Source of the DNA: Patescibacteria group bacterium UBA5532
GTDB taxonomy: Bacteria; Patescibacteriota; Gracilibacteria; BD1-5; UBA2023
Direction of reading: 5' to 3'
Assembly: GCA_002426885.1 (NCBI GenBank)
Contig: DINU01000003.1
Location: 17,634-81,633, forward strand
Length of the DNA: 64,000 nt
Shown one piece after another: positions 32,233 to 46,183 of this stretch; the first letter of the stretch is position 1; each line of letters opens with the position of its first letter. The notes under the pieces are model-generated. The model ran no database searches and had not been told where the DNA came from. It worked only from the letters and a program-made list of their open reading frames with translations. The position numbers and the translations under genes were made by a program.

Positions 32233-32991
32233 CTATCAAATCCCTTCCATCAGTTCCAAAAATTTCTCTGGAAAAAGCAGAACCCAGTCATGATTACCTT
32301 CCACATATTGAGTTGCTGAATTTTTTATGCGTCGAGAAAATTCCTCTGCATGTGTACGAGGAAAAAGTTCATCAGTATCTCCCCAGAGAATATGCGTCGG
32401 CTGTGTAATCTGCTCGAACGCCTGCGTCTTTCCATAGATCGAGAAGGTGGTTATTTTCCATATTTTCCGAGAGGAGGAAAGCCGACCTAAGATTCCGGAG
32501 CAAAAATCAGAAAGCGCCATGAGAGTGATCTTCTTATTTTTAAAGAGAAAAAAACCACGCCATGTCTTCTGAGCAAGACGAAACAAGAAGCGTCTCGAGG
32601 AATAGCCTGGTAAAATCCCCGCGGAATCGATGAGTATGAGCCTGGAAATTCTCTCGCTTTTCGATGCGAGATGCAGTGCGATTCCACCACCAAAAGAATG
32701 ACCGACTAAAATACAGTTCTGTATATCGAGAATATTGAGAAATCGAGAAAAAAGATTCGCAAAATCATCAAAATTCCAGAGTGTATCGGGCGTATCAGAT
32801 CTTCAGAAGCCAGGAATATCTGGCGCAATAACAGTATATTTCTCTGCAAGAAGCTCAATATTTCTTCTGTATGTCATCGCTCGAAGACCTCCACCATGGA
32901 GAAAAAGAAGTGACTTCCCTGCTCCACATACGAAGTATCGGATACGAATTCCATCGATGACGAGAAATCTCTCTTCGAAGTCTTTCTTCAT
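32233..32991 (-). CDS. Alpha/beta hydrolase (252 aa)
   Basis: LLFLHGGGLRAMTYRRNIELLAEKYTVIAPDIPGFG (oxyanion H-G-G region). Nucleophile elbow: LVGHSFGGGIALHLA. Late His in GNHDW. Track ORFs 32803-32991 and 32236-32586 are in one frame. TGA at 32236 is immediately followed by TAG at 32233-32235. Confidence 0.8.
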
Positions 32992-34142: not shown

Positions 34143-34628
34143 TTATGACAGCGTTTTTACCACCGTGATATTTCTATCTTGATACCCAAGTTTTTGGTAG
34201 AAGTTATGCGCGATTTTATTCGGGACAAAAACCTCGATCGAGATGAGTGTACATTTCTCGTCTTGAAAATATTTTTCTATTGCGTGCATCAGTGAAAAAC
34301 CTATTTTTTCCCCACGATATCCTTCATCCACAAAAAGCTCCAGAATCACCCCGCATTTCGTCGGAATCATCTCGAGCTCTTCCTCTTCTGAAGTATCCTC
34401 GATAATCCCTGCGATCATACCGACGGGAATATTCCCACGCTTTGCGATGAAGATTTTCCCCTGTTTTTCGGAAATCTTCTGAAGTAATGTGGGGAAATAT
34501 GTGGGTCCGTACTGAGGCAGTCGGCGGAGTCTCTCGAGTGGATCGATCGCGACAAGATAATCCTGTAGCGCTTCGAGAAATTCTATAAGCGCCACTGCGT
34601 CGTCTCCATACTCGGTAATCTGTATCAT
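34143..34628 (-). CDS. GNAT family N-acetyltransferase (161 aa)
   Basis: Intact ORF. Acetyl-CoA motif A: ELFVDEGYRGEKIGFSLMHAIEKYF. Terminal NFYQKLGY motif. Confidence 0.85.
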   Translation of the reverse strand: MIQITEYGDDAVALIEFLEALQDYLVAIDPLERLRRLPQYGPTYFPTLLQKISEKQGKIFIAKRGNIPVGMIAGIIEDTSEEEELEMIPTKCGVILELFVDEGYRGEKIGFSLMHAIEKYFQDEKCTLISIEVFVPNKIAHNFYQKLGYQDRNITVVKTLS

Positions 34629-40388: not shown

Positions 40389-43300
40389 TTATTTTACCAC
40401 GATGGAGAGCATTTTATTCGGGATAAATATCTCCTTCACGATCTCTTTTCCCTCGAGCCATTTCGCGATATTCGGATCAGCAGAGACGACTGCGGAGACT
40501 TCCTCCTGTGAGACGCCCGTAAGGAAGGAAAAAGTTCATCGTAATTTTCCACCGATTTGGACCGCGATCGTCACTTCGTCATCGATAAGCATGAAGTCGT
40601 CATATTTCGGCCAGGAAGCGAAGAAGAGAGACTCATATTTATAGCCGAAGATTTCCGCGAAAAGCTGAGTCTGCATGAGAAATTCTTTCTGATAGTCTGC
40701 TTCTGTCGTCTCCGATGCACTTCTTCCGGTGATCTTCGAGATATAGAGACTCCGCATCGGGACGCTCTCATCGAGCTCTCCGAGGATCTGATCCGTCAGG
40801 ACATAGTCACGCGTGTACTCCCCTGTCTTCACACTTCCATCTGGGAAGAGGACCGCAAAAGCATCTTTATAGAAGAAGTCGACTTTCCCTCCCGCATCGC
40901 GCGCGATCGTCCGGTAAAAATCCTGCATCAGACGTGCTAGCTCTGACGCACTCACTTCATGTTCGGTTTTTCCGAGCTTCTCGAGTACGACTCTCCGCAC
41001 TTTTGTCGGCTCGAAATCCTGATCCTTAAAATACACAGCCGTGTCAGCGACCACAAGTGGCGCATCTCGCTCGATACCCCTGTATGCCTCGAGCTTCTGG
41101 AGTGCACACTCCATCGGAGTCGCCCCTGTCTCTTCCGTATCGATCAGATGGGGGAATGATTCGATCACGACGGATGGATCCAGTGGGGAAAATGCCTTCT
41201 GAGCGCGGGAGATTTTCCCTGCATTCCCTGTCGCAAAGTAAATCTTCGGAAAATGTGTCGATTTTTTACCCTGCTCTTTCTGGAAATACTCAAAACATTC
41301 TTCTGCTATATGTGGCGCGAACGGATGAAGCAGTCCAAGGAAAGACTCTTTCCACTGATCTCGAAGCTCCTCATCTTTCGGAAGTCAGGTGTTCATGACG
41401 ATGATAAGCTGAGCAATCGCTGTGTTAAATTTATAATTATCGATCCCTTCCCCGATCTGCTGGATCGCCTTATGAAGCGTCTTCATCGCGAGCATGTCAT
41501 CCTCGGCGTATTTTTCTTTTCCTTCGATAAAAAGCGTATAGACTCTATCGAGGAATCTCCGCATTCCGATCATCGCGGTCGTATCCCATGGCGCCGAGTC
41601 CTTGAAGTCCGCGAGATACATCTCATACATACGAAGGCTATCTGCTCCGTATTCTCGGATAATATCATCTGGATTGACGACATTTTTCAGAGATTTTGAC
41701 ATCTTGGCGACGACTCGCTTCACGAGCTCTCCTGTCTGTATCTCATAGAATTTTCCATCTTTTTCCTCGACGAGATCGACTGCCACGAGTCCGCCATTTT
41801 CTCGCTCATAGGCATATGCGAGGATCATCCCCTGATTTCGGAGTCGGTAAAATGGCTCTGTGGTCGAGACGACACCGATATCGAAGAGAAATTTATGCCA
41901 GAATCGTGCATAGAGCAAGTGGAGTACTGCATGCTCTGCTCCTCCGACATAGGAGTCGATACTTTTCCAGTACTGCTCGATCTCGGGAGCGACAAGTGCT
42001 CTGGTATCGTGTGGATCCATGTATCGGAGATAATACCAGCAACTTCCCGCCCACTGAGGCATTGTATTGGTTTCGCGTTTTCCAGAGAGATTCTTCGCGA
42101 GCTGTACATGGACGAATTCTGGGATATTTGTCAGTGGAGAGTTTCCGTCTCCAGCAGGTTCGAAGCGCTCTGTCTCAGGCAGACGAAGTGGAAGATCGTA
42201 ATCGCAGACGATTTTCCCGTAGATTCCATCGTAGATCTTACTCACGACTTTCCCTCCGATTACGAGTTCACGTATATTCCCTGAGCAGTTACATGTAGCT
42301 CCAGCGGTTCGCTCCCCATCATACGGTGGTCGCTTCAGGACGTATGCCATCTCGGGATCGATCGCCTGAGTAATATCATGAATATGAGGAATTTTCTTCA
42401 GATCTTCTTTTGCGAGGTGAATCAGTGGAATCGGCTCACCCCAGTAACGCTGTCGAGAGAAGAGCCAGTCACGGAGTTTATAGTTTACTTTTTTCTGACC
42501 GAATCCCTGTGTCTCTGCAAAATCTGTCAGCACTTCGCGAGCCTTCTCGGAAGTCAGTCCTGTGAAATCTCAGGAATCTACAAGGATTCCGTCGTCAGTG
42601 AGAGCCTCTTCTCAGTGATAAAATAACTTCCAATATCGTGAATGTCCGTGCCATGTAATCTCTTGTTCCACTATATCTTTCTCGACCCATTTCAATGTGT
42701 GTTTTCCTGTATCGACTTCAGATTCCCTCCGGTTCTCTGATCGAAGTATCACATGAAATACTCTTCATGTGGTACTTAAATTTCTACCACTTCTGTATCA
42801 TAGAAATTGCGAACGAGAAAGGGGAACAGGAGAAATGACTTCAAAATCAGAGTATCCTGTCTCCTCCAAGAGTTCACGAGTAATAGTATCGAGTTCGGAT
42901 TCTCAGCCTTCCATTCATCATCACACAAAGTGAACATGTCTGCCATTTTCTTGTTCTTCGATCTCAAGAAGAATTTCTCATTTTTCATTTTCCACGATGA
43001 TATCCACGATTTTTCGCTCTACTATATCAAGTCATTCTCGTACTCTACTTTCTCATGTGTATGCATGCTGATATGCGATACTCTGTTGTATCGGTAAATT
43101 ATACTTCTTCGCGAAAGCAAAATCGCGTTCATCATGTGCTGGGACCGCCATCACCGCCCCCGTTCCATAACTTCCGAGGACATAGTCCGCGATCCAGAGC
43201 GGAACTGACTCATTATTATATGGATTTACGAGATACGATCCAGTGAAGACACCGGTTTTTTCTTTACCATCGGCGGTACGATCCTGATCCGATATCTGAG

Positions 43301-44747
43301 CGGACTTCTGGATATACGCCTCGCACTCCTGCCCCTGCTCCTCGGTGATGAAGTCCTGTACATTCGGATGATCAGGCGCGATCACAGCATAGGTCATCCC
43401 GAACACAGTATCGATACGAGTCGTATAGACGCGGATGGAATGCTGGGGGTTTTTCTGGATTTTCATGAAAATCGCTCGCTCGCGGATCGTCGCATCTGTC
43501 AGATCTTCCCCGTACGACTTCCATACTTTTCTGAGCTTCTCGAGCTGAAAATCGAGGGGTGTATCGAGAAATGTACATCAGAATCGCTCATAGTACGGTG
43601 CGAGCTCCTTCGTGCAGTCGAGATAAAACTCTACTCCGTCGCTCATCTCCATCGCATAGGAAAGGAGCTCGTGTCCGAGTTTTTTTCCGCGATATGCAGG
43701 ATCGACATAGAGTGCCCCGAGTTCATGATACATACCATACTGTGCCACTCGCACAAATCCGACGATCATATCATTTTTCTTTGTGACGAAGAATTGCTCA
43801 GGCGCGAAATCGACAGTATGCAAATCCGTCGCTTTTCGAATCTCGAGAATCCGCTCGAAATCTTCTGAAGTTGCATGAGAAAAAGAAATATCTGAAAAAT
43901 CTCATTTCATCTCTTCTTCATTAACTTTCGGAATGGCTCCGAATTTACTATCTGCAAATGAGGGCTTTGCCGGACGATTGAGTTCACCTAGATTTTTCTG
44001 GAGAGGTAGCTCTCATTTTTTTGTTGTCTTTTTCATCTCGAACTCACATCCCTCACTTTTCCCGATCCAGTTGCGCTGCATATCTTTTATCCCCTCGGGC
44101 CAGTCGAGATCATCGACATCCTTGAGAAGCCGATCAGCATACTTCGTAATCGCGAGGACCCACTGACGGATTTTTCTTTTTTCGACTTTTGTCCCACAGC
44201 GCTCGCAGGTGAAATCAGAGAGAACCTCTTCATTCGCGAGTCCCGTCTTACAGCTCGGACAATAGTTAATCGGGAGATCCTGCTCATATGCGAGCCCTTG
44301 CTCGAAGAGCTTCAGAAAAATCCACTGTGTCCAGCGATAATACTCTGGATCCGTCGTGTCAATCTCGCGTGTCCAGTCATAGCTAAATCCGAGTTTTTTC
44401 AGCTGTCCAGAAAATGTGTGAATATTTTCCTTCGTGACGATCGCCGGGTGGATCCCTGTCTTGATCGCATAATTCTCAGCCGGAAGTCAGAAGGCATCCC
44501 ACCCCATCGCATGCAGAACGCGAAATCCCTGCGCATGCTTGTATCGCGCCATGATGTCATTCGCTGTGAATCCCTTCGGATGCCCGACATGGAGCCCTGC
44601 TCCACTCGGATATGGAAACATGTCAAGCGCGCAAAACTTCGGAACCCGAAAATCTTCTGCACTTTCTGGATTCGCGACGTTATACGTCCCTCTATTTTCC
44701 CAGATTTTTTGCCATTTCTCCTCGATGGCTCGATGATCGTATCCCAT
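40389..44747 (-). CDS. leuS: Leucyl-tRNA synthetase, 1452 aa, with three in-frame inserted domains
   Basis: All canonical LeuRS blocks are present and colinear. These are HIGH ([15 protein letters not shown]), GWDAF[G]LPAE, a Zn knuckle ([23 protein letters not shown]), [11 protein letters not shown]1 ([22 protein letters not shown] and [25 protein letters not shown]), [27 protein letters not shown] ([10 protein letters not shown]), [12 protein letters not shown] and the C-terminal WPKYD...VQIGGKLRG. 4359 nt with 17 TGA and no TAA/TAG; all gaps between track ORFs were translated by hand. TAA at 40389-40391. Confidence 0.9.
40632..41262 (-). other. Ham1/RdgB (ITPase)-like domain inserted between the LeuRS anticodon-binding and C-terminal domains
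   Basis: [19 protein letters not shown]...[22 protein letters not shown]...[11 protein letters not shown]. This resembles the A-T-G-N-x-x-K, E-E-T-G-x-T-x-x-E-N-A and A-D-D-S-G-L blocks of RdgB/Ham1. Flanked by [14 protein letters not shown] and [11 protein letters not shown]. Confidence 0.55.
42612..43050 (-). other. Nudix hydrolase domain inserted in the C-terminal part of the LeuRS CP1 domain
   Basis: Complete Nudix box, G-x5-E-x7-R-E-U-x-E-E-x-G-U: V[G][G][G]MEG[G][17 protein letters not shown]. Four of its Gly are TGA (42903-42923). Flanked by ...[10 protein letters not shown] and ...[24 protein letters not shown]. Confidence 0.8.
43467..44030 (-). other. GNAT acetyltransferase domain inserted in LeuRS at the entry to the CP1 editing domain
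   Basis: Lies between ...[10 protein letters not shown] and [18 protein letters not shown]... Sequence: [60 protein letters not shown] (GNAT motif A, R-G-x-x-L-G). Same frame as the flanking LeuRS sequence. Confidence 0.75.
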
Positions 44748-44808
44748 ATGAAAAGAAGAATATAAAACGCTCTATTTTTACTCTAAAAAGCGAGAAATAC
44801 AAGGAAAA

Positions 44809-45690
44809 ATGACATGACTCAGAAAGAGCATAATCACTTTAATTTGACTTATATCAAAAATATATTATGTTGACCCTTATGTTTTCTGAGGAAAAATGCG
44901 AGAAATAAGCGCAACATTCATATGAAGCAATGCACTCCCGATACGAGAAAACGGGATATTTCGGCTTCAGACAATCACACAAAAACGGATTCTCATAATT
45001 CTCTGAGTATGAGAATCGCTGATAGGAAAGCTCGAAGTAGCACTGGGAACAGAGGTCACGATCCAGTGAACAGAACACAATCGAGTAGAGCTTTTCGGGC
45101 AAAAAAACAAACTCACGATTCTCTGAGTCTCCGAGCTTACTATCTCATGAAATCAGTGAGAAATTACCATAGGTGATATACCAGAAAATGCGAGAATCCA
45201 TGCATGTGAGAATCAGGGCACGATAGGTGTCCTCGGAAATCGTAAAACGCATGACTGGGAAATAGATGTGTCAGGAAATCGTGGCGTAATCGTCCTTCGG
45301 CAAATGTGAAATGGCTCTGTACAAGCAAATCAGAACACGGGGGAGATTCAGATCGAAAATGCATGAGATGTGGACATCTTCAAGAATGCATGAACGATTA
45401 TCTTCCGTGGAAATGGATGGCAGACATGGATAGATGGCTGATCCACGGAGACGGGGAAAATACATCTCGATAACCTGCGTGGGATCGTATCACTCCCGAA
45501 GGACACAGGGACGATCATGCGACCATATATCGGACAGAAACTACTCACTCATATTGGTCCTACCCTGAGAACTGTGACGCAATATATCCACGCGATGTGA
45601 AGAAGTATCGTCTCTCATATTATACACATGACATCCGAAAGATGACCGAATACTACGAACACGGAAGAAAGTAACTTCGAGTCCTCGTAA
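44809..45690 (+). CDS. Beta-helix-type repeat protein (293 aa), hypothetical; 16 in-frame TGA
   Basis: No track ORF in this frame. All 15 sequence lines were read in frame, with no TAA/TAG for 293 codons. Repeats of G-x-I-x-I/V and N-x-G: LGVGESLIGKLEVALGTEVTIQGTE..LTILGVSELTISGNQGEITIGDIPENARIHACENQGTIGVLGNRKTHDWEIDVSGNRGVIVLRQMGNGSVQANQNTGEIQIENAGDVDIFKNAGTIIFRGNG. TAA at 45688-45690. The start could alternatively be the ATG at 44896. Confidence 0.65.
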
Positions 45691-45733
45691 AATATTCATC
45701 CAGATTACTCTTCTTGTATAAAACTCTCTCGGA

Positions 45734-46183
45734 TTATTCCGCGAAATTATAGAGATTTAGTCCGATATCGGTATCTTTTACCTTTATGACACGTGTGTCC
45801 AGTGGTGTGATAAAAAATTCTCCCGCTCATCGTATCTTCGCATCGAGCACATGTCCTGCAAGTGCTGTATAATCACTCCGACCAAGTGTCGCATGGAGAT
45901 GAAGTATCGGCATATCCTCCACCAGAGAGATATTTCCAGAGAGATTCGCGATCTCCATCTGCTCATGAAATTCCCGATCGACATACTGCTTCGTGTGCGG
46001 ATCGAAGAATCGCAGTACCACTTCATTCACAGCGCCAATCCCAGTGATCTGTCCTGCGGTAATCCTCTCTCTGAGGATGAAATCCGTCATGGATTCTACG
46101 AGAGACGCCCCATCAGCAACACTGAGAATGAAGACCCCATCTACACGTCTCGCAGTCCAGCCATTTCCATGTATATTCTGCAT
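45734..46183 (-). CDS. PPC (DUF296) domain protein (149 aa)
   Basis: MQNIHGNGWTARRVDGVFILSVADGASLVESMTDFILRERITAGQITGIGAVNEVVLRFFDPHTKQYVDREFHEQMEIANLSGNISL...LHLHATLG. Track ORF 45827-46267 continues through one TGA to TAA at 45734-45736. Confidence 0.7.

Follow-up and report, generated by a model that had tools for sequence, protein, structure and literature searches.

A GNAT-fold module inside the CP1 editing domain of a patescibacterial leucyl-tRNA synthetase, and the varying enzyme inserts of its relatives

Few enzymes are as conserved or as well studied as the aminoacyl-tRNA synthetases, and the extra domains found in them are usually lineage-wide, non-enzymatic or dedicated to editing; the CP1 editing domain is itself an insertion in the Rossmann fold. 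The leucyl-tRNA synthetase (LeuRS) gene, leuS, of Patescibacteria group bacterium UBA5532 raises the question of what a GNAT acetyltransferase is doing at the entry to such an editing domain, and what it might acetylate. The gene lies in a stretch of 64,000 nucleotides of contig DINU01000003.1 (assembly GCA_002426885.1), referred to here as the window, for which a preliminary description made from the sequence had noticed the insertion and had likened its position to the chemistry of tRNA-acetylating toxins. Translation and comparison of the locus reveal one essential LeuRS with three autonomous enzyme folds (GNAT, Nudix and Ham1/ITPase), two of them within the editing domain, and a family of related synthetases in which such modules differ between close relatives.

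When UGA is translated as glycine (genetic code 25), leuS is a single open reading frame (ORF) encoding a LeuRS of 1,452 residues; under table 11 the same region is split into a string of short ORFs. The features of the gene needed here are the following, residue numbers being those of the code-25 translation.

40389..44747, minus strand: leuS, with HIGH, KMSKS, the CP1 editing domain, the anticodon-binding domain and the C-terminal domain
44580..44591, minus strand: HIGH motif (HVGH), residues 53-56
43437..44027, minus strand: site A insert, residues 241-437 (197 residues), in the first beta-hairpin of CP1, before IRVYTTR
43902..44027, minus strand: N-terminal linker of the insert, residues 241-282, of low complexity
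43446..43901, minus strand: GNAT fold proper, residues 283-434, with the order b1-a1-b2-b3-b4-a3-b5-a4-b6, an extra conserved helix and b7
43662..43706, minus strand: motif A, the acetyl-CoA pyrophosphate loop, residues 348-362, containing R353-G-K-K-L-G358
43578..43595, minus strand: motif B, YYERFG, residues 385-390, with Y385, Y386 and G390 invariant
43407..43424, minus strand: threonine-rich editing motif TTRIDT, residues 442-447, starting 5 residues past the end of the GNAT insert
41691..41705, minus strand: KMSKS, residues 1015-1019

All 16 in-frame stop codons of leuS are TGA, with no TAA or TAG. The TGA of residue 87 (44487-44489, in the context GWDAF-G-LPAE) is aligned with glycine in all nine standard-code LeuRS compared, and those at positions 565 and 726, together with the glycines of the Nudix box, are mostly glycine in the same alignment. 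Throughout the 64-kb window UGA behaves as a sense codon: code-25 genes are long and hold 0-21 in-frame TGA apiece, and the summed length of ORFs of at least 100 residues is about threefold greater under code 25 than under table 11. No tRNA gene, hence no tRNA-Gly-UCA, was found in the window, and no Rfam family was matched there at gathering thresholds. The translated protein is a bacterial-type class Ia LeuRS, with the signature motifs, a CP1 carrying both the threonine-rich motif and the editing aspartate (D539 in PAHDERD), and both C-terminal-side domains; the role in editing of the threonine-rich region, and of T252, has been described (PMC3664829). The full protein is matched by the Pfam models tRNA-synt_1 (7.4e-39), tRNA-synt_1_2 (1.6e-55, broken into three stretches by the inserts) and Anticodon_1 (5.2e-12). 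A pseudogene or frameshifted leuS was rejected, since TGA is the sole interruption, falls on conserved glycines, and every catalytic motif is intact. An assembly chimera was likewise rejected, because a GNAT within LeuRS recurs in independent assemblies (P0008, P0011, P0087 on two separate contigs, and P0121/P0123) and in L089, a syntenic contig of a sister organism.

Profile and structure searches both identify the insert at site A as a GNAT. On the full LeuRS, Pfam assigns Acetyltransf_7 (1.4e-11; 1.1e-12 on the insert alone), Acetyltransf_1 (3.2e-10) and Acetyltransf_10 (1e-7) over residues 311-393, with scores of 45-48.6, 40.7-44.2 and 32.4-36.6 bits that exceed the gathering cut-offs of 27, 20.7 and 23.6; the match is well beyond chance. 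An AlphaFold2 model of the orthologous module of P0087, which is 52% identical to that of the window, has canonical GNAT topology (pLDDT 85.8, pTM 0.79), and a Foldseek search with this model returned 413 matches in the Protein Data Bank (PDB) at E<=1e-3, of which the best 50 are all GNATs. In L002, the closest relative that has no insert, a 7-residue hairpin loop stands in place of the 197 residues, and the last strand of the module ends 6 residues before the strand that bears the editing-site threonines. The 42-residue linker matches both ends of an extra segment of about 110 residues in P0011 (residues ~185-300), where that segment precedes the GNAT, and in this respect resembles a deletion remnant. 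An intein or homing-endonuclease insert was considered and rejected: no such Pfam domain is matched anywhere in the full LeuRS, and the insert is a plain GNAT without splicing motifs. At its flanks a search for mobile-element scars gave only short direct and inverted repeats at chance level.

The consensus of motif A is Q/R-x-x-G-x-G/A, and the insert has the arginine and the final glycine, with lysine at position 4; the active enzyme GNA1 (PDB 3t90) reads R-G-K-Q-L-G at the aligned position. Across the four LeuRS-embedded GNATs that were aligned (P0008, P0011, P0087 and the window), R353, K356, L357 and G358 are invariant, as are the Tyr-Tyr...Gly of motif B and the extra C-terminal helix, and in the window the glycine of motif B, G390, is itself encoded by TGA. 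A tyrosine of motif B is the usual general acid of GNATs. The four modules are 45-54% identical to one another, as against 66-77% for the LeuRS bodies, and because fold and motifs persist at that distance the embedded GNAT is evidently maintained rather than decaying. Net charge is less constant, at -8 for the window module and -2 to +1 for its orthologues.

These observations bear out the preliminary description in its main structural claim, a GNAT in the entry hairpin of the LeuRS CP1: the code-25 ORF, the Pfam matches and the insert-less L002 all agree on the place. Its coordinates, 43467-44030, were right as to location, but the 3' limit falls 30 nucleotides short, at a position that coincides with a table-11 ORF boundary, and would cut off the last GNAT strand. 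Motif A, which had been called clean, is present at residues 348-362 but is better termed near-canonical on account of the lysine at position 4. The acetyl-CoA loop and the motif-B tyrosines, whose loss would have spoken against an acetyltransferase, are conserved in all orthologues.

The wider relatives of the module were reached only with a profile. A single-sequence, word-indexed search with the GNAT found no matches, a profile of the four embedded sequences did find some, and an exhaustive HMMER search gave 559 representative clusters at E<=1e-10; among the 150 listed, nearly all are stand-alone proteins of about 150 residues, some of which are labelled in their sources as 'N-acetylglutamate synthase-like GNAT family acetyltransferase'. 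The stand-alone relatives (P0138 and the clusters P0124-P0134) are colinear with the module over its full length, including the extra C-terminal helix (P-x-DF...) and the last strand, at 24-38% identity, and differ from it in being separate genes where the window module is nested whole inside CP1. The 154-residue P0138 and the window module can be aligned over their entire length (38% identity, E 5e-37) and share the lysine at position 4 of motif A (YRGQKIGY in P0138). The insert therefore amounts to an entire small GNAT protein accommodated in a loop. P0138 is encoded as a separate gene directly upstream of rpsF-ssb-rpsR (L081 302-766), and in the P0087 genome (L084/L085) rpsF-ssb-rpsR and a pilin-like gene come just before the GNAT-bearing leuS, a recurrent proximity between this GNAT type and the operon; no rpsF-, ssb- or rpsR-type gene was found near leuS in the window.

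GNATs of this type also occur in other hosts and at other places. In addition to the homologous GNATs at the same site in P0008, P0011 and P0087, and fragments of more, a distant standard-code LeuRS of 1,093 residues, P0137 (L086 3001-6282), has two copies, one at site A (residues 236-382) and one at the end of CP1 (residues 521-644), the second with cysteine in place of the motif-A arginine. In three UvrC proteins (P0237, at L087 1307-3625, P0248 and P0266) a GNAT with an HRGKKLGY-type motif is nested in the RNase-H endonuclease domain; a MazG-family gene lies immediately downstream of the uvrC of P0237.

The GNAT is also one of several occupants of its site. A domain map of the 120 closest LeuRS, together with loci from reference genomes, was drawn by sequence landmarks for four sites: A, the CP1 hairpin; B, the end of CP1; D, the leucine-specific region; and C, before the C-terminal domain. 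Site A holds GNAT (4), Ham1 (4; P0009, P0012, P0037 and P0041, which have it there instead of at C), a PF06821 Ser_hydrolase (at least 12, with carriers that include Doudnabacteria and Taylorbacteria), PDDEXK_3, DUF559 (in a genome labelled Hanamia), an IS200-like Y1_Tnp transposase domain (in Peribacteria), or nothing. Site B is mostly occupied by Nudix and site C by Ham1, and site D occasionally has a Nudix or an unassigned insert of 190-266 residues, so that Nudix is found at B or D and Ham1 at A or C. The repertoire amounts to at least seven domain types over the four sites; in about 50 of the 120, none of the four domain types that were mapped is present. When the LeuRS bodies are placed in a neighbour-joining tree, the GNAT carriers belong to a clade of 19 members (distances 0.19-0.27) in which they are intermingled with proteins that have a serine hydrolase or no insert. 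Several further inserts were seen in the course of the mapping: large unassigned ones at site D in P0004, P0028, P0104 and P0114 (250-266 residues) and in P0038 and P0045 (~190 residues), another of 99 residues at site A in P0020, and about 110 extra residues near KMSKS, without a Pfam match, in L006. The taylorbacterial LeuRS of L080 has a Nudix (ORF residues 240-371) and a serine hydrolase (residues 417-591), both N-terminal to its TTRPDT, and may thus have two inserts in or before site A.

How recently such modules can change is seen by comparison with L089 (GCA_054403515.1, reached via P0147). The features of the window LeuRS that enter into this comparison are as follows.

43731..43784, minus strand: hypervariable patch, residues 322-339, in the b2-b3 hairpin of the GNAT, with 9 of the 13 differences from L089
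42606..43074, minus strand: site B insert, a Nudix module, residues ~558-714, in the C-terminal part of CP1
42852..42920, minus strand: Nudix box G610-x5-E-x7-REL-x-EE-x-GY, residues 610-632, intact
40632..41270, minus strand: site C insert of Ham1/ITPase fold, residues 1160-1372, between the anticodon-binding and C-terminal domains

The DNA of L089 and the window is about 98% identical over 48209-43075 and 42605-41009; the interval between, 42606-43074, has no blastn match and coincides exactly with the Nudix module. The LeuRS bodies are 99.5% identical and the two Nudix modules 28% identical in amino acid sequence. The boundaries of the exchange are sharp, the N-terminal edge lying after LPIQQSIA, and inspection of the alignment shows intact Nudix boxes in both. 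The Nudix of L089 (6749-7222) is similar in type to that of P0009 and to the second one of P0035. The GNAT is 91% identical overall, with 13 amino acid differences. The 40-codon bin holding the hypervariable patch diverges by 21% in nucleotide sequence, as against 2.5% or less in flanking bins, which could reflect gene conversion or local positive selection. Codon differences number 13 non-synonymous and 8 synonymous in the GNAT, versus 2 and 28 in the body (residues 723-1159). In this essential gene, which otherwise hardly differs between the two, it is thus the accessory modules that vary. Elsewhere in leuS, the codons for residues 801-960 (41868-42344, minus strand) diverge by 4-9% from L089, almost wholly synonymously, between stretches of 0-2%, which suggests a further recombination tract. 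At L089 8818-8902 the leuS match ends at LeuRS residue 1246, within the Ham1 module, and is followed by an alanyl-tRNA synthetase-like motif (TARHHTFFEMLGNFSFG) and the end of the contig; this is probably an assembly chimera, a rearrangement being the alternative.

The Ham1 module is complete in structure, with a model of pLDDT 91.9 (AlphaFold2) that has the entire ITPase fold, a Pfam Ham1p_like match (6.9e-6), and 29 top Foldseek matches that are all Ham1/ITPase/RdgB proteins or the ITPase-fold KomBC complex. Only its N-terminal half is matched by the Pfam and NCBIfam Ham1 models, the C-terminal half being divergent. A further property of the modules is the uneven spread of TGA codons: 11 of the 16 in leuS lie at residues 565-726 (42569-43055, minus strand), 10 of them inside the Nudix module, where three consecutive TGA codons encode the GGG that enters the Nudix box. 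The last 726 residues of LeuRS have only one TGA, and the Ham1 module has none. Absconditicoccus praedator and Vampirococcus lugosii also have, in public databases, LeuRS that carry Nudix.

What the GNAT might acetylate is a separate matter. The stand-alone GNAT toxins TacT, AtaT and ItaT acetylate the amino group of aminoacyl-tRNAs, and the preliminary description saw in the position of the module a suggestive geometry for the same reaction. A toxin-like reading is not supported. No tRNA-acetylating toxin is among the PDB sequence matches at E<=10 (34 by phmmer, 44 by profile) or among the best 50 of the 413 Foldseek matches to the P0087 module, and no specific sequence or structural similarity to TacT, AtaT, ItaT or KacT was thus seen in these searches. 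The best sequence matches are GNA1, ElaA and PaiA/SpeG-type enzymes, and the best 50 structural matches include RimI, ElaA, Ard1/Naa50/NatC, HP0935, GCN5, NAGS and SpeG at TM-scores of about 0.6, so that the likeness of the module to its PDB neighbours is generic GNAT similarity. The toxins are encoded in two-gene systems with an adjacent DUF1778/ribbon-helix-helix antitoxin (PMC9177977), whereas the module is embedded in leuS, and the genes around leuS, for an EamA transporter, a PCC-domain protein and a CTP-transferase/MPI (sugar-nucleotide) enzyme, include none of DUF1778 type. AtaT must form a homodimer to create a positive tRNA-binding patch (PMC7595197); the module is a single embedded copy, with a net charge of -8 in the window. 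What the module does have in common with the toxins is the GNAT fold and, presumably with it, acetyl-CoA-dependent N-acetylation, for which an aminoacyl alpha-amine would be a conceivable acceptor.

Comparison with RimI, which had been proposed as the other pole, places the module closer to RimI-type than to TacT/AtaT-type enzymes without making it a RimI. The RimI structure 5isv is the top Foldseek match (E 6e-7, TM-score 0.61), and both the stand-alone P0138 gene and one GNAT-bearing leuS lie beside the S6-SSB-S18 operon. The NCBIfam matches of the module, to ArsN2 and rimI, are both sub-threshold, however, with 21.2 bits against the cut-off of 86.4 of the rimI equivalog TIGR01575 (35.4 bits for P0138), and the window leuS has no S6-SSB-S18 linkage. 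RimL and the C-terminal domain of MccE, which acetylate aminoacyl-nucleotides, are a further point of comparison, and the module has no match to Acetyltransf_3, the RimL/MccE-type family. As for geometry, the module does stand at the start of CP1 near the editing strand, but in closely related LeuRS its slot is empty or taken by unrelated enzymes; the argument is weakened because the slot alternates in this way and because the GNAT type also occurs at a second LeuRS site and in UvrC.

The reading that best accommodates these observations, held tentatively and at somewhat under even likelihood, is that the GNAT is an active passenger acetyltransferase in an exchangeable cassette slot of LeuRS, with an acceptor common to its stand-alone relatives. 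A complete, independently folding GNAT nested in the first beta-hairpin loop of CP1 would bind acetyl-CoA through its b4-a3 loop (R353-G-K-K-L-G358) and pass the acetyl group to a primary amine, with Tyr385 or Tyr386 as general acid; from its conserved motifs it is probably active as an acetyltransferase. It would act in trans, LeuRS serving mainly as a tolerant, constitutively expressed scaffold, and the acceptor would likely be a protein N-terminus, in the manner of RimI, or a small-molecule amine, and not specifically the 3' end of a tRNA. The LeuRS of Gracilibacteria/Absconditabacteria and other Patescibacteria would have four surface loops that serve as cassette slots, in which small whole enzymes are gained, lost and exchanged by recombination, the GNAT being one such cassette. 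Several points weigh against this reading. The GNAT clade recurs, twice, in the LeuRS of a distant standard-code lineage (P0137), which hints at a non-random association with LeuRS; the tether to the editing strand is only 6 residues long, so that the module is held close to CP1; activity is not certain, because lysine replaces the motif-A position-4 glycine in all embedded copies; and the clustered substitutions in the GNAT, together with the cassette swap, suggest diversifying selection, which is not obvious for a neutral passenger. Short tether, recurrence in a distant LeuRS and signs of diversifying change speak for some coupling to LeuRS, against which stand the promiscuity of the slot, the many insert-less relatives and the UvrC host. 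Exchangeable cassettes (GNAT, serine hydrolase, Nudix and ITPase) that are functionally coupled to the LeuRS of UGA-recoded Patescibacteria, under diversifying selection and acting on aminoacyl or nucleotide species nearby with arms-race swapping by recombination between strains, are a possibility we regard as unlikely but worth keeping in sight; their targets may be aminoacyl-tRNA, misactivated adenylates or, by analogy with MccE and RimL, aminoacyl-nucleotide antibiotics.

More specific explanations can be set against the passenger reading. It is rather unlikely that the GNAT is catalytically inert, a structural or steric appendage or the neutral remnant of an in-frame insertion: the glycine-to-lysine change at position 4 in all embedded copies, the cysteine for arginine in one P0137 copy and the faster evolution of the module relative to the LeuRS core would be in keeping with it, but modules of different lineages, at about 50% identity, keep the entire fold together with the acetyl-CoA loop and the motif-B tyrosines, GNA1 is an active enzyme although its motif reads RGKQLG, and the module is near-identical outside the single patch of about 20 codons to which the non-synonymous changes are confined. 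Lysine acetylation has been reported to modulate the activity of E. coli LeuRS, and the module might regulate in cis, acetylating lysines or the N-terminus of its host (LeuRS or UvrC) or of partners and so coupling them to the acetyl-CoA level. The occurrence of one GNAT type in two unrelated nucleic-acid-binding hosts, and twice in one LeuRS, is consistent with this, as is the presence of the protein acetyltransferases RimI, HP0935, Naa50, Ard1 and GCN5 among the top structural neighbours; yet many near relatives do without the module, its alternation with hydrolases would go unexplained, and such regulation seems distinctly unlikely.

Protection of LeuRS in situ, in which the modules would inactivate aminoacyl-nucleotide inhibitors or misactivated adenylates and an arms race would drive their turnover, is improbable despite a precedent. 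On this explanation the GNAT would acetylate an alpha-amine as MccE and RimL do, and the hydrolase, Nudix and ITPase would cleave related compounds. Small amines, esters or nucleotides are the substrates of all four module types (GNAT, Ser_hydrolase, Nudix and Ham1), and the recent cassette swap and the hypervariable patch stand on a near-identical backbone. Against it, we know of no such inhibitor for these organisms, and the DUF559, PDDEXK_3 and Y1_Tnp inserts and the UvrC host do not fit. The precedent itself is the detoxification of aminoacyl-nucleotides, processed microcin C among them: the GNATs MccE and RimL acetylate their alpha-amine, and MccF, a serine-protease-like enzyme, hydrolyses the same compounds (PMC3817062). 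But the module has no specific likeness to MccE or RimL (Acetyltransf_3 is unmatched, and neither is in the PDB lists, for structure among the best 50 of 413), and the embedded hydrolase belongs to PF06821, not to the MccF family. Most improbable of all is acetylation of aminoacyl-tRNA at LeuRS with the chemistry of TacT, AtaT and ItaT. The last strand of an insert in the first CP1 hairpin does lie 6 residues before the threonine-rich strand, the nearest characterised GNATs (RimI, the Naa enzymes, NAGS and GNA1) acetylate primary or alpha-amines, and LeuRS could supply the tRNA binding that would make a basic module surface unneeded. Acetylated Leu-tRNA, on the other hand, would poison the cell's own translation, near relatives have a serine hydrolase or nothing in the slot, the GNAT type is found in UvrC, which handles no aminoacyl-tRNA, no specific likeness to the toxin clade was seen in the PDB searches (E<=10 for sequence, the best 50 of 413 for structure), no antitoxin-type partner lies beside leuS, and the module is a single acidic copy where AtaT requires a homodimer with a positive patch (PMC7595197).

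Regardless of its acceptor, the embedded GNAT departs from known synthetase architecture. Like other insertions and appended domains it is a nested domain in a class Ia synthetase, but in the window LeuRS the editing domain itself hosts further enzymes, twice (GNAT and Nudix), and the inserts are autonomous metabolic or house-cleaning enzymes that vary and are exchanged between near relatives. According to a survey of domain insertions from 2026, the editing domain of LeuRS is insertion-exclusive and shows 'zero instances of host function' (PMC13114784), and literature searches turned up no description of GNAT, Nudix or Ham1/ITPase domains inside LeuRS. Such LeuRS are present in public databases but have gone unremarked, many of them fragmented by standard-code gene calling; because standard-code gene callers shred these genes, the architecture is easily missed. 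The locus catches one module replacement between genomes that are about 98% identical, shows the reduced-genome Patescibacteria shuffling small enzymes into housekeeping proteins (LeuRS and UvrC), and provides a natural map of permissive insertion sites in LeuRS that is useful to protein engineering. It also presents a concrete case in which one can test whether tethering to an editing domain brings an acetyltransferase into contact with the aminoacyl-tRNA or adenylate pathway, and coupled cassettes, if real, would mean that an aminoacyl-tRNA synthetase can have quality control or self-defence built into it in a way not described before.

Some minor features of the window complete the description. 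The kilobase or so upstream of leuS (44750-45800) has no convincing ORF on either strand and a marked shift in AT skew; no T-box or other regulatory RNA was matched in this stretch by Rfam at gathering thresholds. The window encodes a stand-alone GNAT of 161 residues (g26; 34143-34628, minus strand) with the motif YRGEKIGF, which was considered as the source of the LeuRS insert and rejected, having only motif A in common with it. A stand-alone alpha/beta hydrolase with the motif GHSFGG is encoded at 32233-32991, also on the minus strand.

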